Source of the DNA: Sarea resinae
Taxonomy: Eukaryota
Reading direction: 5' to 3'
Assembly: GCA_026026165.1 (NCBI GenBank)
Contig: JAPEUD010000001.1
Span: 310,001 to 374,000 of the forward strand
Length of the DNA: 64,000 nt
In this document: positions 34,103 through 44,298 of the stretch, piece after piece
How the letters are laid out: every line of letters starts with the position of its first letter
Numbering within the stretch: the stretch's first letter is position 1
The notes under the pieces: model-generated
Seen by the model: only the letters and a program-made list of their open reading frames with translations
Told to the model about the DNA's origin: nothing
The model's database searches: none
Program-made: the position numbers and the translations under genes

Positions 34103-36355
34103 ATGTATGCTTCACTCTTAGTCTTGATCTTTACACTCCTCAGCGTCAGCAACGCACAAAACCTAGGGACAGCTTCGACTTTTGCTGTCCTCGGCGCCTC
34201 AGCAGTAACGAATACCGGTCTCACAATATTGAACGGTAACCTTGGAATATCTCCTGGATCGTCAATAACTGGCTTCCCCCCCGGCATAGTAAATGGAGCA
34301 ACGGACGACGATGATTCTACTGCGGTTCAAGCACAGAGCGATGCAAGCACGGCGTACACAACAGCAGCTGCGCTACCGTCTCAGCATGACCTTACAGGAC
34401 AAGACCTAGGGGGCATGACTCTTGTGGCGGGTACATATTCCTTTGACAGTACCGCTGCAATTACTGGAACTCTCACTCTTGATGGCCAGAACAACCCAAA
34501 CGCGAAGTTCGTCTTCCAGATAGGATCCTCTCTTACCACTGCAAGCGCTTCTGCCGTGGTGCTGGTCAATGGAGCAAGAGCATGCAACGTCTTCTGGCAA
34601 GTTGGCAGTTCGGCTACTCTGGGATCTGCCACTACTTTCACTGGCAACATCCTGGCATTGACTTCGATCACAGCCATAACCGGCGCAACATCAAACGGAA
34701 GCCTTATTGCCCTCAATGGAGCAGTAACTCTAGACGACAATATCATAACTGCTCCAGGTACTTGCAATGTGATCAACCCTTCTTCGACGAGCACTATCTC
34801 TTCGACAAGCACTATCTCTTCGACGAGCACTATCTCTTCGACGAGCACTATCTCTTCGACGAGCACTATCTCTTCAACGAGCACTATCTCTTCAACGAGC
34901 ACTATCTCTTCAACGAGCACTATCTCTTCAACGACGTCGCCGACCAGCCTTTCAACTGTTATCAGCACCTTGAGTAGCACTATTACCCCAACGACATCTC
35001 TGACGCTAACTTCCAATACCCGGACATTGATGTCAAACACCACCTCGACTGTAAGACCTACCACGATGGCAAATACCACCTCGATGTCAAACACCACCTC
35101 GATGTCAAACACCACCTCGATGTCAAACGCTACTACGATGGCAAATACTACTACGATGGCGAACATAACTACGATGCCAAGCAGCTTGTCCACCGGAAAC
35201 AGCTCGACATCCTTCTTTATGGCACCATCCAGAAAGCCAATTCCGACAACCAATGGCTCAATCATCTCCTCGACGCCAACATCAACGCCAGCATCAACAT
35301 CGACGGGTTATGTGATTACTCCAATGTCGATGACAACCTCGTCAATGACAATGTCTACAATTGTTTCGACTGCACTAGTAACAGAGAGTCTCACTACTTT
35401 GACATCGACGACTAACAGTGTAACCGCTATTTCCTTATTGTCTACTTCCTCGTCTCTATCATTCACGCCGTCTATGAGCCGGTCGACATTCACAGGATCT
35501 ACGGGATCTACCATTTCTACCATTTCTACGACGTCTAGCACCCCCACAACTTCGAAGTCGTATCCCTCTACTTCTTTGCCTTCCTCTTCGACGGGCTTCG
35601 CTAAGGCCTACAACAAGGCGGGAGGGCAGTCCTCTGTCATCTCAGCAATGTTTACAACGTCTATAACGCGTACAGTATACGCTGCGTCTTCGGTCTCGAA
35701 CACGGAAAAGACACATCCTGAAAAACTACACACCAATACAGTTTCCACGTGGTCCACCACTGTTGCAGCATCTACGGTATCGACAACGACGGAATCGAAC
35801 ATGTCTTCGCCGATCTGGGAAACTGAGCTTGATATTGTCTTTACCACCTTTTGCCCTACCGTTCCTACCGCTCTTACGACCGGCGGACAAACATTGACTA
35901 TAACCAAGACAGGCATGATTACCTTAACGTGTACAAAGTGTGCTGCTTCGACGTATTTGCATTTGCCTACTAAGACAAGTCCTATTTCTCCTAATTACGT
36001 CGTTGCGCCATCCGAACTTCCTTGCTCCTCTTCTTTGTCTACCCAGCTAGTTGCAACGGCGGCTTATGTGCCGACCGAGACAACCTCTAGTCCTGGTCCT
36101 ACTCTGAATACCATTGCGGCCTCAAAAGCTTCTGGATCCTTCGCTTCGTCTAGCCCTGCGACTTTCAAGGCATCTTCATATCTCCCGACTGGGATGCTTT
36201 CTATGTCTGGTCCTAGTCCTAGTCTCGCTACCTCCACGAAAAAATTTCCTACCTCTGGCCCTCTCGCTTTCACTGGTACTACAAGCTTTAATCGGCCTGT
36301 TGCTGCTCTTCTCGCGCTTAGTATCGCATTTACTACTTTGTTTGTTTTCATCTAA
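34103..36355 (+). CDS. Secreted, probably GPI-anchored DUF3494 (ice-binding-like) protein with Ser/Thr stalk, 750 aa, intronless
   Basis: Signal peptide MYASLLVLIFTLLSVSNA. DUF3494-type motifs LGTASTFAVLGASAVTNTG, ITGFPPG, DLGGMTLVAGTY, TLTLDGQNNPNAKFVFQIGS and CNVFWQVGSSATLG. Hydrophobic C-terminus AFTGTTSFNRPVAALLALSIAFTTLFVFI. Confidence 0.92.
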   Translation: MYASLLVLIFTLLSVSNAQNLGTASTFAVLGASAVTNTGLTILNGNLGISPGSSITGFPPGIVNGATDDDDSTAVQAQSDASTAYTTAAALPSQHDLTGQDLGGMTLVAGTYSFDSTAAITGTLTLDGQNNPNAKFVFQIGSSLTTASASAVVLVNGARACNVFWQVGSSATLGSATTFTGNILALTSITAITGATSNGSLIALNGAVTLDDNIITAPGTCNVINPSSTSTISSTSTISSTSTISSTSTISSTSTISSTSTISSTSTISSTSTISSTTSPTSLSTVISTLSSTITPTTSLTLTSNTRTLMSNTTSTVRPTTMANTTSMSNTTSMSNTTSMSNATTMANTTTMANITTMPSSLSTGNSSTSFFMAPSRKPIPTTNGSIISSTPTSTPASTSTGYVITPMSMTTSSMTMSTIVSTALVTESLTTLTSTTNSVTAISLLSTSSSLSFTPSMSRSTFTGSTGSTISTISTTSSTPTTSKSYPSTSLPSSSTGFAKAYNKAGGQSSVISAMFTTSITRTVYAASSVSNTEKTHPEKLHTNTVSTWSTTVAASTVSTTTESNMSSPIWETELDIVFTTFCPTVPTALTTGGQTLTITKTGMITLTCTKCAASTYLHLPTKTSPISPNYVVAPSELPCSSSLSTQLVATAAYVPTETTSSPGPTLNTIAASKASGSFASSSPATFKASSYLPTGMLSMSGPSPSLATSTKKFPTSGPLAFTGTTSFNRPVAALLALSIAFTTLFVFI
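34781..34933 (+). repeat. Coding 18-bp tandem repeat, 8.5 copies (SSTSTI)
   Basis: Unit TCTTC(G/A)AC(G/A)AGCACTATC read directly. Confidence 0.95.
35066..35173 (+). repeat. Coding 18-bp degenerate repeat, 6 copies (M[AS]N[TAI]T[ST])
   Basis: MANTTS MSNTTS MSNTTS MSNATT MANTTT MANITT; one more copy at 35030. Confidence 0.9.
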
Positions 36356-38582
36356 AGCACGCTACTAGGCAGGCTAGATGTTCTAGAGAGCTGCTAAACC
36401 TGTTTAGCTTAAAAAGCCTTACATTGTATATATTTATTTCGATAGTAACATATTAACATGCTAAATTTATAAGTCTTAATAATAACTAGAATATTCTTTA
36501 GTATAAGTTATACATAAAATATATAGAGGTATTGTACATTTAAATCTATTAGCTATAAGATAATATTAAAGTGTGTAAGTATAAGAGCTGTTATAATTCT
36601 AACACTATATATCTTAACACTGTTGTTACAGCATTAATAGTATCTAACACCTCCTATAGGTGTTAGAAACCTCTTATAGGTGTTAGAAATCTTTTATAGG
36701 CGTTGAACACCTTCTATAGGTGTTGAGACCTAGTAGTAACTGTAACTACAGGTGGTGTCAACACTTTCTATAGGTGTTGTAACAGTGTTAACACCTTCTA
36801 TAGGTGTTAGAAACCTCTTGTAGGTGTTGTAACAGTGTTGAAACTAACAGTAGGTGTTGAGACCTAGTAGTAACTGTAACAATAAGTGGTGTTAACACCT
36901 TCTATAGGTGTTGTAGCAGTGTTTAAACCTCTTATAGGTGTTAAACACTTTCTATAGGTGTTGACACAGTGTTAAGACTCATTGTAGGTGTTATAGTAGT
37001 AGTAGATATTTCTTAAAATTTTAAATAAGCTAATATTCACTGGGACATTCAACGATTTTTGCAAATATTATGTAAGCTTACGTAATCATGACATTTTCAT
37101 TGAATGTCTCAGTGAATTTAGGTGGTTGTGAATCTTAATAAAATCTAAGAATCTCTATATCAAAATAATATTATGGTTTTAGTAGGCTATATACTACTAT
37201 AGGGCTAGATTTTCTAACAAGACATATTGCCTAGTTAGTGTAACGTCTATCATTGATTATATAATACTTTTAGGATCGATTCCTACTGTACTTAATTTAC
37301 TTTTTCACTTTTTCCTTTAGGTTCTTATAGGTGTTAGAGCTTCTATAGGTATTTAAAGCTTTAGCAGTCTTAAACCTAGAGTAAATACAGTAGGTTTAAG
37401 ACTATTGTTACACTGTCACACAATTCTATGTATTACTGCTAGTCTTGAACTAGTAACAGGATTACCTAACCTAATTCCTTGTCTATTTACTATTTTCAAT
37501 TGATTTTCTATTTAATTCTAAACCACTAAAAAGTTGCAAAACTAATGCAACTTTAGGCTAATTAAGAGAGTATTAACACAGATTTTATACTAGTACAATC
37601 TATAGAACCACAACTAATTTTCTGCACCTATAGTAAGGTATTAAGACAGTTATAACACAGTCTTAACACAGTTACTAAAATAGCGCCAGGCACTTAAGTA
37701 CCTATAAGGTAGTATAAAGGGCTAGAAAAACTCTTATTAAGTGTATATATAGATAACTTAATATCTATAAGTATAGGCTTACTTTAAGTAGTCTACTCTA
37801 AGTAGTTCTTATCTATAAGTTACTTAAGTTATATAGCTAGAAGCAGTTAGTATAACTGCCTAGGAACTATAAAAACTATAGGACTAAGTCTTTTCAAATG
37901 AAAAAGAGAAGGTTTAAATCTTTTTTCAAAGTATTTTAGTACCTTAGGTACCTTATAGCCAACTCTAGGATTTCTAACACAGTCTTACAAGAGTATCACA
38001 CTCTAGTAGAAGCCTATATAGTGCGAAATTCCTAAACAGTGTTAAAACTATGTTGAGACTGTTACAATACCTACTATAGGTCGCAGAATTATTATTAGTT
38101 GCAGAGGTTCAGAACTACTCTTAGTTGCAACTGACTTTTGCACGCCTATAGAAAAAAATTAAAAATCAGAAAAAGTGAATTAATAACTGTAGGAATCAAT
38201 CTTAGGAGCACTATGTAATCACTAATGATTGATGTTACACTAACTAGGCTATATAACTTGTTAGAAAATCTAGCCCTATAGTAGTATATAGCCTACTAAA
38301 ACCATAATATTATTTTGATATAGAGATTTTTAGATTCTAAAAAGCCTTAGAACTATATAAATTCACTAAGACAATTGATAAAAAGTTATAATTATGTAAT
38401 TGCTTACCTAATAACTGCAAAAATTATTGAATGTCTTAATTCTTTCTAACTTCTACCTACTACACTACCTACTAGCAGTAGAATTACATTTGTTTTCACT
38501 ATATTAGAATGTTATTGCAGAATTTTAAGACTATATACACTATTACTAAACCTATAGGTACACCTAATTAGGTTACAACATC

Positions 38583-38696
38583 TTATATAGGTTGCAATAC
38601 CTAATATAGGTTGCAATACCTAATATAGGTTGTAATACCTAATATAGGTTGTAATACCTAATATAGGTTGTAATACCTAATATAGGTTGCAATACC
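38583..38696. repeat. 19-bp minisatellite, 6 copies (TAATATAGGTTG[C/T]AATACC)
   Basis: Direct reading; copies differ at a CpA/TpA site. Confidence 0.92.
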
Positions 38697-39237
38697 TTAT
38701 ATAAGTTTAAATTAGTAGTAGGTTGCAAAATATTAATAGGTTTTGAAAATCAGAAAAGTTTAGCTATTTTACAACCTATAGGAGGTTTTAAACCTTATAA
38801 CTGTGTTAGAAATAGTCTTAGAAGCACTTAAGTAATTTACTAGAAACTTCTAGTAATATTTAATTACATAAGTGATTTGTAATTAATAAACTACATTAGT
38901 AAAAATAGCGATGTACTTATAGAGGCTCTAGAAGGCTATAATTAGGCTAACTAATCTAACTAGGTAACCTAATCTAATAACTCTATAGGTTAGAGGTCTA
39001 GGTTATATTAGGCTAGATTTGTAATCTATAACCTATATCAGCAAAAATTGCAAACTGCTTCTAGAGACTCTAGAAGGCTAGAATAGCCTAGAGAGCCTAT
39101 AGAAGTTTTCGCCTCTTATAGAGTTGCTTATTCTATAGAGCTACTAAGGTAACTTATAATAGCTGTAAGAGTATATACTCTACCTTACTACTATATCAAG
39201 TAATTTTAAAACTGTGTTAAAACTGTGTTATTACTAC

Positions 39238-39722
39238 TAGGCTGGCATATAGGTTAGGTTGAACGGATTAGGGTTAGTGTTCACTAACTCTATGTAGGTT
39301 TCTAGAGTGAATGGGTTATAAAGTATAAAATCCAACCCAATTGTAAATTGGGTCGGTTTTTTCTTAGCACTACTGCACGTGACATATTGCTTATGTAATC
39401 GTAGGTCTAGGGTGTATAAACACTAAGAAAAGTCAATTTCCTATGTAATAAAAAGAGCGTTACCTCTTGTTATTACTGTTACATCCTATAGGTGCGTGAA
39501 ACTATGCTGTAATACATATAAACAGCACCTATAGGTGTGTTCTCAGTATGTAACAGTGCTGAAAATTACATGTTGGATTAAAATGGATTATCCTAGGTTG
39601 GGTTAACTATTGTTCTACTAACACACTATTAGTTAATAGGTTACTAGACTAGCCTTATCTAGTCTGTGAGCCTCATCCGCAGAACTATTGGATTGGAAAA
39701 TCCAGTTGGAGCGGCCACGCTA
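39238..39722. mobile_element. 485-bp non-autonomous hAT-type element (MITE)
   Basis: Perfect 8-bp direct repeat ATTACTAC at 39230-39237 and 39723-39730; imperfect termini TAGGCTGGC...GCCACGCTA. Confidence 0.75.
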
Positions 39723-41649
39723 ATTACTACTATAGGTGTTAAACACCTCTTAGATGTTAACACTAGTTGAGTTTTCAACACCTATAGAAAATTAAGGCAA
39801 AAAAAGTAAATTATCTATAGTAGGAACTAATCCTAGGAGCACTACATAATTAGTGATTGACGTTACACTAACTAGGCTATCTGACTTGCTAGAAAAACTA
39901 GCCCTCTAGTATTATATAGCCTATAGAAACTATAATATTATTTTGACATAGAGACTTTTAAGTTTTAGAAAAAATAACCAGACCTATTTTTAGTGAGGCA
40001 TTCAACGATTTTTGCAAGATTACATAATTGCTTATGTAATATTTGCAAAAATCGTCAAATATCTCAGTGAATATTAGCTTATTTAAAATTTCAAGAAATA
40101 TCTACTACTACTATAATACCTACTATTAGTTTTAACACTATGTTAACACTTATAAGAGGTTTCTAACACCTATAGAAGGTGATAACACTACCTATAGTTG
40201 CAGTTACTACTAGGTCTTAACACTTACAATTAGTTTTAACATTGTTACAACACTGTTTTAACACTGTTACAACACTGTTTCAACACTGTTTCAACACTGT
40301 TTTAACACCTATAGATAGTGTTAGATACTGTTAATACTGTAATAACACAGTGTTAGGATATATAGAGTAGGCACTTAAGTACTCTTAATAGCTATAGAAG
40401 CATATAATACTAGGTATATACTATGTATATACTCTAATAACTAGTTAATACTACTAGTGCAACTTTATAAACTTAGGACTTATAGGTAGTTCTAGTATAC
40501 CTAGCCTATAGAACTACTTACTTTAAGTAGGCTATAGATTTAGTGCTAACTAATTATAGAGTGGATTTTTATAAATTTTTATTTAGAAAGTCTTAGTGTT
40601 ACCTAATATATATAGTACTAGAGCTGCTTTCGCTAAATTTTCGCTTGATTTTTTAGCTTATATTTAATTTAGTGAATTCTTATAAAGTATTACTATATAA
40701 TCTATAGTATTATAAAGTTATATAGTAGTATTATTAGAATATATAGTAAATAGGAATATTATAAAGTTATTATAAGATTTTATAGGTATTATAACACTAT
40801 AAGTGTATAAAACGTTTAATATTTTTACAAGGATAGGTAATATAGGTTATATAGAGCACTTATAGTCACTTATACTAGAGTATACTGTTTTTTTACTAGA
40901 ATAAGTAGTATATTATAAGGGCTTCTATAAATAAGTATATAGAGTACTATACTAGTAAAGTGTAAGTAGTGTAAGTAATTAAGCTCTAGCTTTATTGTAA
41001 TACTAGTATTTAGTGATAGAAAGAGAGGTTATATATCTATATAATAATACTAGTTTACTAGGAATTAGTATTTAGTAGATTTATAGAGTTAGTGCCTACT
41101 AGTAATTATTAATAGCATTGGTTTTATATCTCTATATTAGTTATTAGTAGTATTATAGCCTACTCTACTATAGCTAGAAGTCTAAAAAGTAGCTTAATAT
41201 ATATAAAAGTAATAATAGGTTTTAAAGGCTATTTAGATATAATTTAGCTCTAAAGAACTAAAGAAGAAGTAGTATTATAGTTATTATTATAAAAGCAAAG
41301 TCCTATAGGTGTTCTATATATAATAAAGGTTATAATTCTATTACCTCTAACTCTTTAAGTTAGGTAAAGATTATAAGTAGGCTGTAGAAATCTTACCTCT
41401 AGGTCTTAATATAATTCTAATACATTTATAATATAATTTACCTTATTAAGAAACTACTTATAGAGGCTAGACACAATTAAAATTAGGTGTAGCTATTAGT
41501 CTATATAAACTCTTTACAGGTATACAGACAGATAAATAGGTGTATACCTAATAATTTAATAGTTTTTAATATCTAATGTTTAAATAACAAGGTTAGTCTC
41601 ACGCTACCTCTTAGCATTAGTAGCCTATCTAAAGACCTCTTTAGATTTT

Positions 41650-44298
41650 CTAACTAGATATGTTATTGCTTGATCCCCAGATAATATCTAATGTCTCGTT
41701 GATCTTATCGAGAAAATCAGAAAGTCCTGGCGCCGAATCTGCATCGCTCGGGAAAAAAGTGTTCAGGGTAGGCAAAGAAGGACCACATTCGCCAATTTCT
41801 AGATTTGCTTGCTGCCCAACAATGTTGTCCCATTCGGCGTTGTACATCGAGACCTGCCAATGCTCACCAGCATTCACCGATCCACGGCCGGAGAGGGTAG
41901 TTTGACGGGAAAACAGCTCATATTTAGAGGCTTCCAGAACATAAGCGCTCCGTCGCATGCTGTATCGATAGGAGCTTTTCTGGATGAAGAAACGCGTATC
42001 AATAGTCTCTGTAAAGGTAATAAGCGGCTCTTTCGACGTGATTGGATCCGGGTTGATGTTGAGACGTATGCAGTCAGCAAATTTATGCATCTTCGGCGTA
42101 ATTTGAGAATATTCAATGGCGTTGTTCGCGGCAACCTCAAATTGCCAGGCCGAATCCCTGGATCGTAACGTCAATAGACTAGATCTTGCAACGCCTGAGC
42201 ATGGGTGTCTGACTTTTCAAGGTCTACGAAATTGAGGTTCAAGGGCATCAAGATTTTGCCTGACTTTTCCATGCCATTGGTTCCGTTGCTGTTGTTGATC
42301 CTGAACCACTTTTTCAAAGGTACTTCGAATTCCCCAGGTTTTGTGCTCTTTCGAAACTCGATTTCAAGTCGCAAGTGGCCCATACCATCCGAGCTCGCAA
42401 CTTCAAACATAGCGGAATAAATTGGGCGGACCTCTTCAAGGGCTCCACACATGACATCCATTGGTTCCAATACACTACGAGCCCCACAGCAGCGCGAGAT
42501 AAGCTCACCTTCGCTGGAGAGGTGCTTGAGGCTGGGAATCAGAATCAGCGGAGAACTAACAACGAATGTTGTGGAAGTCTAACTTACTTGCGATCTATCT
42601 CTCCACTGGTCTGGAAGTTTTCCATCATCAACATGAAATCTCTGATCCCGAGTCGACCCCCTTTAGGCTTCTTATAACCCGTCAGATAAAGCGAACCAAA
42701 GTGGACCCGGACACGAATATGCCCTCGGTGAAAGCGTAATTTCTTCAGACAATCATCTATCGCTTCGCGTAGACGTCTCAAGTTTGATGAAAGGGCTCTG
42801 GACCTAAGTCCAGCCCATTCGTTAAGTTCTCTTCCAGTGAACCTGGATCCTGTCAACATTGGCAATACGGGTGCCATGCTCGGAGAGACGGAATCCTTGG
42901 GAATTTTCTCCGGGATTAATTTGACTTCTTTACGTGCCCCCTCGATGCTTGGAGGATTGACGAGATAGAGCCTTGTAGGCCTACTGCTGCGTACCATAAT
43001 TTCACAAATGGTCACTCGAATACGCTTGATAGCCTGGTCAACGTTGGTAAGATCATGGCCCAGGATTTTCAGGAGCGAGCTCCCACTTTCGTAGATGACG
43101 TGACAACGGCAAGACATCCGAACTGGATCGAGAGCTTCCAGATTGTGGCCTAATGTAGCTTCTATCCGAAGCTCCGAGCTCGGCCACAAGAAATATCCCT
43201 TTAGAAGTTAGGGATTGGTTTTGAACCTTCAAGGTAACCATAGAGTAGCTGGGAACAAAGCGACTGGACTCACCATGATATTGAAGGCGTCAGATCCTTC
43301 AGGAGCTCGACGATATGATCGCTGGTCTGCCTGCTCTTCCTTCTCCTTTGCAATGGCTGTCTTCTTCTTATCTGTCAGAGAAGGTATCCTCGGGAAGGTT
43401 TCCTTCTCTCCAGCTTGGACAGTCAAATAAGAATCATAGTATCGGTGCTTGATCCACGCAGCTAGCTCGCTTTTGGCCGCTAGGACTTGCTCCTCACTTC
43501 CCCATATAGAGAATTTCTTTGAGATCCATTGTCAGCAGACGGATGCCGGTAAGATATTCGGTTTTTGGAAGGGACTAGCTAAAGGCTTACCGGCTCGAGG
43601 CGGTTTGCAGCTTGGTCTGCCTGCTCGACGAACGCTCCTGTCGCGTGGTTGATGCGTTCAATAATAGGGAGGGGTACTGCGATCCGAGTAGAGACCGGTC
43701 CGGGGCGGTGCTTCTTTGGCAGCCTAAATGAAATTAGGAGATAATACCTTAATTCTTTGAGGACCGACTTACGGAAGCCCTCCGATTATGTCACCAGACG
43801 ATGGCAAGAACGTGCCTGAATTTGTGAGTATGAGGAACTTCTGTAGTGCAAAAGGTCTACCAACCTGTCGCTGGCTGCCTGCTTCGCCAGGCGGCCTTCG
43901 CCCGACTGTCTTCGTTCACGATGAGATGATTCGTATAGTTGTGTTTAACAGTCTTGGGAAGAGACTTGAAAGGTGCAATCTTCTGACCAGTGGGCGGCAA
44001 GGATATGGCATGGCGTGAAAATTCGGCTTGCGCGTCCGCCTCTTTTTTGTGAAACAGTTCTCTGGAGAGGCTTTGCTGCCAGACATTATCATATGACTCG
44101 GAGCGGCCACCGGGACCTTTTATCGACCGACTTAATCCGGAATTCCATTCTGATAGTGGGGATTTAGAATGGCCAGCAGCTTAGGGAAACTTATAGAGAT
44201 CACGGAAATACCTAGAGCATTGTCATTTTCAAAGCTGCAAAAGCCCGTCAGTACAGACCTGCTAGAAGTTGGCTAGTCTGCACTTACTCTCCCTCCAT
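41650..44298 (-). CDS. Uncharacterised multi-exon fungal protein with a degenerate KH-like segment
   Basis: Exons splice in phase from MEG|DFENDNAL|EWNSG... through IIERINHATGAFV...|KFSIWGSEEQVLAAKSELAAWIK and ...LEALDPVRMSCRCHV... to the stop at 41650. Confidence 0.75.

Follow-up and report, generated by a model that had tools for sequence, protein, structure and literature searches.

Within a 64,000-nucleotide stretch of the Sarea resinae genome (contig JAPEUD010000001.1, positions 310,001 to 374,000 of the forward strand; hereafter the window, in whose coordinates all positions are given), one intronless gene at 34103..36355 encodes a protein that couples a head of the DUF3494 ice-binding family and fold with a Ser/Thr-rich stalk predicted to be disordered and a hydrophobic C-terminal end; fungal relatives have the same plan, and the protein is of mosaic origin. 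We favour, tentatively and without calling it probable, the reading that it is a wall-anchored ice adhesin and recrystallisation inhibitor that stays on the surface of the hypha, and not an antifreeze that diffuses away. From its features we infer signal-peptide cleavage, glycosylphosphatidylinositol (GPI) attachment, wall linkage, glycosylation and the ligand.

The gene forms a single ATG-to-stop open reading frame (ORF) of 750 codons plus stop, and its coordinates agree exactly with those of the intronless 750-aa frame described in an initial annotation made from the sequence alone. The motifs which that annotation cited all occur in the translation, namely ITGFPPG (residues 55-61), FVFQIGSSL (137-145) and CNVFWQVGSSATLG (161-174), and the intron-rich neighbourhood that it noted is apparent from CBF/Mak21 (26.2-29.6 kb) and ORC1 (45.8-48.5 kb), each broken into several ORF pieces. 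Its assignment of the head to DUF3494 is borne out by the PF11999 profile (Ice_binding, DUF3494), which matched residues 29-216 over profile positions 1-208 of 208 (E-value 1.7e-62) and scored 211.2 bits where 28.7 is the cut-off. Since this match runs in one stretch, the domain is complete and holds no intron, and its extent (nt 34187-34750) is close to the span of 34160-34750 estimated before. The gene divides into the following parts:

34103..36355, forward strand: whole coding sequence (ORF list; Pfam match in one stretch)
34103..34156, forward strand: predicted signal peptide, residues 1-18 (MYASLLVLIFTLLSVSNA; rule-based, with a model helix at residues 2-14)
34157..34765, forward strand: DUF3494 or ice-binding-like beta-solenoid head, residues 19-221, ending at the conserved Cys221 (Pfam, structure model and Foldseek)
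34583..34585, forward strand: Cys161 (conservation; putative partner Cys221 at 34763-34765)
34601..34624, forward strand: VGSSATLG motif, residues 167-174, with S169 and T172 (alignment to 7bwx and 7bwy)
34766..36262, forward strand: Ser/Thr-rich stalk, residues 222-720, predicted disordered (composition; model confidence)
34781..34934, forward strand: first 18-bp tandem array, STSTIS x8 (period 18, 8.6 copies, 97% matches, score 273)
35029..35180, forward strand: second, degenerate 18-bp array of (M/T)(S/A)NTT(S/T) units (period 18, 8.4 copies, 78% matches)
35798..36025, forward strand: Cys module, residues ~566-641 (containing SSPIWETELDIVFTTFCPTVPTALTTGGQTLTITKTGMITLTCTKCAAS; Cys 584, 610, 613 and 641; homology search)
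36266..36352, forward strand: candidate GPI-attachment signal, residues 722-750 (rule-based; model helix at 731-749)

In an AlphaFold2 model built on a 29-row alignment, the head (~residues 20-222) reached a predicted local distance difference test score (pLDDT) of 92-98 and consisted of strands and one long helix (72-90); as modelled, it is an irregular beta-solenoid with one long alpha-helix alongside, the fold expected of DUF3494. Foldseek with this head model recovered 7bwy/7bwx at a template modelling (TM) score of 0.95, with a root-mean-square deviation of 0.9-1.0 A over 199 columns and 46% identity, and all of its 31 matches with E<=0.001 (31/31) were ice-binding or antifreeze proteins. 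By sequence, the closest solved structures were 6eio (161 bits), 5uyt and 7bwx/7bwy (155 bits), and the fungal antifreeze proteins and Arctic-yeast LeIBP (3vn3, 5b5h and 3uyu), whose hosts are basidiomycetes, gave only ~53-64 bits and 27-30% identity. The earlier view that the head is bacterial-like in type is sustained by its 60-69% identity to soil-bacterial or metagenome proteins, as opposed to the ~60 bits to these three structures.

The structure 7BWX is AnpIBP, the ice-binding protein (IBP) isoform 1a of the Antarctic ascomycete Antarctomyces psychrotrophicus, and its study reports that the B-face substitutions S153Y and T156Y reduce activity to 17% (PMC7277481). AnpIBP and the window protein share the Pfam family, the fold, the B-face residues and an ascomycete bearer: S153 and T156 align to the identical S169 and T172 of the head, both in the alignment to 7bwx and in that to the S153Y mutant 7bwy, and VGSSATLG is common to the two proteins (the mutant chain reads VGYSATLG) and invariant in an 8-sequence eukaryote-like alignment, A1. 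Unlike the window protein, AnpIBP consists of one domain (~220 residues) whose C-terminal segment is short and basic; it lacks Ser/Thr stalk, Cys module and hydrophobic C-terminal signal, and its ice activity has been measured, whereas that of the window protein is a prediction from sequence and model. In the alignment AnpIBP also lacks the pair of Cys161 and Cys221, both of which are invariant in 8/8 sequences of A1 and occur in the bacterial relative from Tengunoibacter (L085) as well, and which could possibly form a disulfide clamping the C-terminus of the head to its core.

The choice of ice as the ligand rests on two points, namely that ice binding is known for each of the characterised relatives and that the head retains the mapped site, which would make ice binding by the head plausible; taken as a whole, the case for ice is a weak one, and several observations weigh against it. 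The VGSSATLG motif also occurs in soil-bacterial relatives (Tengunoibacter L085 and Chloroflexia L086), and in the 29-row alignment, bacterial rows included, conservation reaches at least 90% at Q166, G168, S169, S170, A171 and G174; being so widely conserved, the motif does not separate ice binders from non-binders. The prokaryotic relatives belong mostly to common soil phyla, with 25 Actinomycetota, 18 Acidobacteriota and 9 Chloroflexota among 80 named loci and the other 28 in eight phyla or unassigned. PF11999 is moreover present in Trichoderma viride and Drechmeria coniospora, fungi not known to be associated with ice.

It is possible, though rather doubtful, that in the same wall-anchored plan the head serves general adhesion to something other than ice, for instance a mineral, a plastic-like or hydrophobic material or the surface of a partner organism, with ice binding absent or incidental. 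Such a role would accord with the abundance of relatives in ordinary soil bacteria and with the proposal in Raymond 2024 (PMC11645318) that, in bacteria whose habitats do not freeze, DUF3494 proteins may attach to non-ice surfaces. It would also accord with PMC4859500, which names the PF11999 of D. coniospora alongside two adhesion domains, GLEYA and HsbA, in its clusters of nematode-destroying fungi, and with the beta-helix heads on GPI stalks that mediate plastic adhesion in Candida glabrata (PMC8746771). On the other side, every matching solved structure belongs to a protein with reported ice binding, the nearest of them comes from an ascomycete and has its two essential residues conserved in the head, and no non-ice ligand is shown for any DUF3494 protein in the literature examined.

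The N-terminus carries a signal peptide with a predicted cut between MYASLLVLIFTLLSVSNA and QNLG, before Q19, an h-region of Kyte-Doolittle (KD) hydropathy 2.39, S at -3 and A at -1 (rule-based). The ~500-aa Ser/Thr stalk of the initial annotation corresponds to residues 222-720, that is 499 aa with an S+T fraction of 0.50, and holds 10/11 of the protein's N-X-S/T sequons (composition count); eight STSTIS units start at residues 228-270, and the second array creates seven N-glycosylation sequons at residues 312-354. In the model, pLDDT stays below 50 over nearly all of 228-729, where two 3-residue strands are the only secondary structure, and a C-terminal helix follows at residues 731-749. The hydrophobic tail described before was likewise found, the last 18 residues (VAALLALSIAFTTLFVFI) being uncharged with KD 2.56, and a C-terminal hydrophobic stretch without charged tail is typical of a GPI signal, not of a type I anchor. 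The candidate GPI signal (rule-based) comprises the small residues G725 (candidate omega) and S728, the polar spacer TTSFNRP and the 18-aa uncharged end; with G725 as omega, omega+2 would be Thr, which is less favoured in GPI signals. A dibasic motif just before omega is the sorting rule for membrane retention versus wall linkage, and here the candidate site is preceded by F723 and T724, without dibasic motif, with KK 11-12 residues upstream.

The initial annotation implied that the combination of head, stalk and tail is unusual among fungi, a view that has to be given up, since two other long proteins share the head and the long Ser/Thr stalk. In P0241 (589 aa, a cluster-mate of the nearest neighbour P0135; 66% identity over 218 residues) a signal peptide precedes the head, which is followed by the conserved Cys, by ~360 aa of Thr-rich stalk and by a C-end that is hydrophobic, uncharged and GPI-like. 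P0245 (KAI9797630.1, 632 aa), from Sarcosagium campestre, an ascomycete of the Pezizomycotina, joins a PF11999 head (218.7 bits) to a Ser/Thr stalk and carries the Cys module in triplicate. The stalks of the query and P0241 gave no alignment. Three further sequences (L062, L078 and P0201) have a head and a Thr-rich extension of 110-213 residues, so that S/T-rich extensions of at least 100 residues occur in at least 6/11 eukaryote-like sequences (the 10 of the clade described below plus P0245); the other five are 223-249 aa long, four of them from 1.1-1.3 kb contigs, and may be cut. Long fungal forms like P0245 escaped the near-length search, which comprised the best 120 of 6429 matches (all of at least 301 bits, many with extra domains), and the numbers of long fungal relatives given here are therefore minimum values. 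The metagenome scan comprised 80 of 594 confirmed stretches, P0241's contig not among them. The architecture is a variant within the ascomycete bacterial-type DUF3494 proteins, common to at least two other long proteins, and the head-plus-stalk fusion is old and shared, not special to the genome of the window.

Surface tethering is also common among the close relatives examined. A crude table of C-ends in 41 rows (a 40-row clade around the query plus L086) gave 10 LPXTG-like, 6 PEP-CTERM-like, 2 transmembrane plus basic, 2 GPI-like (the query and P0241) and 21 unclassified ends. The Chloroflexota proteins L085 (Tengunoibacter tsumagoiensis, 682 aa) and L086 (a metagenome-assembled genome of Chloroflexia, 572 aa), the closest named bacterial neighbours in the sample, resemble the window protein in having a signal peptide, a head (64-65% identical) that ends in the same Cys, a long Thr/Pro linker and a wall-sorting-type end. 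They differ in that their linker is TPTV-type, not Ser/Thr with N-glycosylation sequons, in lacking the Cys module, and in their LPXTG-like ends (LPFTGSDP; LPYTGGGG followed by a transmembrane segment and basic residues), as against the uncharged GPI-type tail of the window protein. Seven Ktedonobacteria-type proteins (L085, P0132, P0151, P0163, P0165, P0172 and P0186) carry a recurring '[LMV]P.TGSDP' motif after the Thr/Pro linker, an unusual variant of the LPXTG type of sorting signal; in L085 the motif forms the extreme C-terminus, and no hydrophobic segment follows. Actinomycetota-type proteins (P0126, P0128, P0129, P0140, P0169 and others) share another C-terminal signature, in which an Arg-rich segment containing a conserved Cys ('RFxRC..P') precedes an exact terminal '...(P)xxFTG' or '...LTG'. 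P0118 (645 aa), eukaryote-looking and of a different lineage, has two DUF3494 domains split by EGF-like Cys repeats and a hydrophobic tail, another surface-anchored layout of DUF3494.

The C-terminal part of the window protein has relatives of its own. Exhaustive phmmer with residues 496-750 against 1.84 billion representatives at E<=0.001 matched just three proteins (P0243, P0244 and P0245), all at the Cys module around residues 575-634; a word-index search with residues 560-750 gave 0/3867 candidates at E<=0.01, an outcome explained by relatives that either fall beyond the length class or count as members of clusters. P0243 is a 216-aa fragment with three module copies. In P0244, a metagenome protein of 142 aa that has no DUF3494 domain, one module is followed by a stretch rich in Pro, Ala and Gly and then, after 'AFTG', by a GPI-like tail; it aligns to residues 566-662 at 37% over 100 aa (pairwise E 6e-11, library-wide E 4.1e-5); the Pfam scan gave no family for P0244 or its module. 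P0245 matches the query at the module with 52% identity over 48 aa (pairwise E 3e-11) and at the head with 57% (E 2e-79), and since head and module stand in the same order there, the fusion predates the split from the Sarcosagium campestre lineage. In the model the Cys module has pLDDT below 50, so that no fold could be read from it, and no second copy of head or module occurs within the 64-kb window. The TTYCP...TLTITDCPC-type Cys pattern is presumably that of yeast Sed1/Spi1, small GPI wall proteins that have no DUF3494 head and for which the literature found gave no sequence. The motif 'LAFTG' before the tail was considered as a relic of a bacterial LPXTG signal and dropped, P0244 having 'PAFTG' there and P0241 no such motif. 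The C-terminal part thus seems related to a small stand-alone wall-type protein, and the chimeric nature proposed by the initial annotation holds in so far as the protein is a mosaic; the further notion of a recent graft specific to this genome is disfavoured, the fusion being shared with P0245.

Several points bear on whether such a protein would be fixed to the wall. Signal-peptide cleavage, GPI attachment and wall linkage are predicted here from sequence rules, and annotated P0245 ends without hydrophobic tail, leaving a GPI-like end in 2/3 long relatives only, both of which count against anchoring. Unlikely as we consider it, the protein might not be covalently wall-bound at all: it might be a large glycoprotein that is shed or secreted, or held in the membrane by its C-terminal helix, and behave as the soluble IBPs of fungi do. 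AnpIBP and other characterised DUF3494 proteins from fungi are grouped with the secreted IBPs of microbes, the GPI assignment is entirely rule-based, and P0245, L062 and L078 have no hydrophobic end in the reading frames at hand. Nevertheless, the uncharged terminal stretch fits the rule for GPI signals, the nearest relative P0241 has a like C-end, and a 500-aa S/T stalk together with a Cys module common to the GPI-like stand-alone P0244 fits wall proteins.

The history of the head was traced by trees of its relatives. Its best single-domain relatives are mostly from soil or metagenomes, the named ones including Chloroflexota and Actinomycetota, and Trichoderma viride has a PF11999 relative (P0141) with 60% identity to the head. 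A quick tree of 120 shorter-class matches and the query placed the latter with seven sequences bearing eukaryote-style signal peptides (SH-aLRT 94), the addition of 160 locus-derived domains brought L062 and L078 into its clade (FastTree), and P0245 grouped with P0241 and the query in a quick tree (SH-aLRT 87). In a careful tree of 66 rows under LG+C20+F+G4, with 40 rows of the query's wider clade and 26 outgroups (P0135 omitted as a near-copy of P0241), the 10 eukaryote-like rows including the query formed one group, with ultrafast bootstrap (UFBoot) 96 and SH-aLRT 93. The next rows outside were the bacterial-looking contig row L079 (97/88) and then P0221 (Chloroflexota), P0131, P0195 and P0202 (90/85), so that the clade is nested among bacterial rows, apart from the basidiomycete-type fungal IBPs. 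The bacterial-looking L068 and P0193, inside the query's clade according to FastTree, were moved out by the mixture-model trees. The eukaryote-like group was delimited after the first trees, its only later-added member with a taxon name being P0245; a protein-atlas lead is that the L078 type resembles a 453-aa PF11999 cluster which is 75% Eukaryota, with Ascomycota as commonest phylum (score 0.87). The trees are unrooted, and the bacteria-to-fungi direction was taken from the far wider bacterial spread of the family. Trichoderma-type sequences form a separate clade (96/98), which an approximately unbiased (AU) test did not reject joining with the query's clade (delta lnL 4.15, p 0.364), a result compatible with one fungal acquisition or with two. 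PMC7277481, citing Arai et al., states that ascomycetes gained the AnpIBP-type IBP from bacteria by horizontal transfer.

In its strong form, the idea of the initial annotation would be that a bacterial domain was recently grafted, in this genome alone, onto an adhesin gene already present; so understood, it is disfavoured and seems extremely improbable. It could draw on the bacterial or metagenome origin of the best matches, which reach 60-69% identity, on the exact protein not being found in a 15-billion-protein collection, and on a gene that is intronless and adjoins a transposon relic. Against it, the head lies inside the eukaryote-like clade, whose long members P0241 and P0245 share the architecture, which largely undoes the claim on the annotation's own terms; the head-plus-module fusion is common to Sarcosagium campestre, with a head identity of just 57%; and composition and codon usage are host-like. 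The third-position GC content (GC3) of head (0.44) and stalk (0.50) compares with 0.41-0.51 in ten neighbouring coding pieces, and the correlation of relative synonymous codon usage (RSCU) with the pooled neighbours (r of 0.43 for the head and 0.37 for the stalk) with 0.01-0.47 in these pieces, which by GC3 and RSCU gives no compositional sign of recent transfer relative to them; as both lie within the range of the neighbours, the acquisition is old.

Given these parts, the wall-anchored ice adhesin could work as follows. In a filamentous ascomycete with a genome of the Pezizomycotina type, the product would be a mannoprotein of the cell surface, routed into the endoplasmic reticulum by its N-terminal signal peptide, where the C-terminal hydrophobic signal might be swapped for a GPI anchor at the candidate omega site G725; the GPI remnant would then be joined to wall beta-1,6-glucan, as in other fungal GPI wall proteins. 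The ~500-residue disordered stalk, O-mannosylated and N-glycosylated, would act as a stiffened spacer through the wall, its two repeat arrays probably having expanded recently, and would present the rigid DUF3494 head at the outer surface, where the flat Ser/Thr/Ala face (the B-face of AnpIBP) may be the binding surface for ice or ice-like ordered water. Historically, the head may derive from a bacterial surface protein, the nearest named bacterial neighbours in the sample being Chloroflexota, and may have entered ascomycetes long ago and joined a fungal wall module before the split from Sarcosagium campestre.

Known systems offer two partial counterparts to this layout. SfIBP_1 of Shewanella frigidimarina (PDB 6BG8; 103 bits and TM score 0.77 to the head) was reportedly proposed by Vance and colleagues in 2018 as a 'new type of ice adhesin', with a DUF3494 head and spacer domains at the cell surface. 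It is said to be similar in holding its DUF3494 head at the surface for ice adhesion rather than as a free antifreeze, and to differ in being bacterial and in having a folded beta-sandwich spacer instead of a disordered, predicted-glycosylated stalk and other anchoring chemistry. Awp1-related adhesins of Candida glabrata have a beta-helix A-region, a glycosylated repeat B-region and a GPI-remnant C-region, and resemble the window protein in layout and in a terminal Cys of the head region that may be disulfide-linked to the core (PMC8746771). They differ in lacking sequence kinship and in having a pectate-lyase-like helix with an alpha-crystallin cap, versus the irregular DUF3494 solenoid with its side helix.

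A more far-reaching and rather unlikely reading is that ascomycetes, including a lichen-forming lineage, hold a wall-anchored ice-adhesin family that arose when a bacterial tethered DUF3494 protein was domesticated by exchange of stalk and anchor. A Chloroflexota-like Thr-rich stalk and LPXTG-type signal would then have given way to an O-mannosylated Ser/Thr stalk, the Cys module and a GPI signal. Ice-active properties have been reported for lichen fungi.

The neighbours of the gene in the window are housekeeping genes, namely a 4HBT thioesterase, CBF/Mak21, a class II tRNA synthetase with HGTP anticodon domain, DUF7905 and ORC1. The gene is followed immediately by an AT-rich block at ~36.4-41.6 kb (GC 0.29), which includes at 36621-40347 a degenerate DNA transposon of the terminal-inverted-repeat (TIR) type, its arms (~36.6-37.3 versus 39.8-40.35 kb) being 80-93% complementary and carrying arrays of ~20-bp subterminal repeats (CTATAGGTGTTAGAAACCTCT-like). 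The block has a TpA/ApT index of 1.72 and a (CpA+TpG)/(ApC+GpT) index of 0.57, a contig depth 10-20x that of the unique flanks and variants that are mostly G>A and C>T, and therefore represents a repeat family mutated by repeat-induced point mutation (RIP). At its far edge, at 41650-43207 on the reverse strand, three adjacent ORF pieces match PF25482 (DUF7905) positions 9-76, 82-162 and 161-300, and look like one gene split by introns or frame changes.

The 3' end of the gene lies within ~300 bp of this RIP-like, AT-rich TIR element, and the gene itself, with indices of 0.99 (TpA/ApT) and 0.99 (composite), lies slightly RIP-ward of its flanks (0.95/1.12 and 0.76/1.17), a lean for which the bias of the Ser/Thr stalk towards ACN/TCN codons may alone account. 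That the gene is decaying or silent and has no present function is nevertheless very unlikely: the frame of 750 codons is uninterrupted and 208/208 profile positions are matched, the GC of the gene is 0.49 versus 0.29 for the repeat block, the head is modelled with very high confidence, and the repeat array of 97% matches suggests ongoing turnover, not decay. Judged by its sequence, the gene appears undegraded.

Fungal DUF3494 proteins studied so far are small, soluble and of the antifreeze type, and no description of a GPI-anchored or wall-anchored fungal form was found in the literature searched. A wall-fixed form, if true, would act locally, in ice adhesion, in control of ice-grain growth at the hyphal surface or in adhesion to other substrates, and would differ from those proteins in its biology as well as in its possible use, for instance as an ice-binding module that nature itself displays on cells. 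The locus would be a clear example of how eukaryotic parts for sorting and anchoring come to be fitted to a surface domain gained from bacteria, a refitting that keeps the head-on-a-stalk layout also present in the closest bacterial relatives. According to Raymond 2024 (PMC11645318), eukaryotic DUF3494 proteins so far all come from icy habitats, and the clade described here, together with the Trichoderma and Drechmeria cases, provides material for probing this icy-habitat rule and non-ice ligands. If a bacterial tethered protein was indeed domesticated, a head-on-a-stalk design would have been rebuilt across domains of life, and ice binding or structuring on the hyphal surface might aid freeze tolerance or the ice activity reported for lichen fungi.

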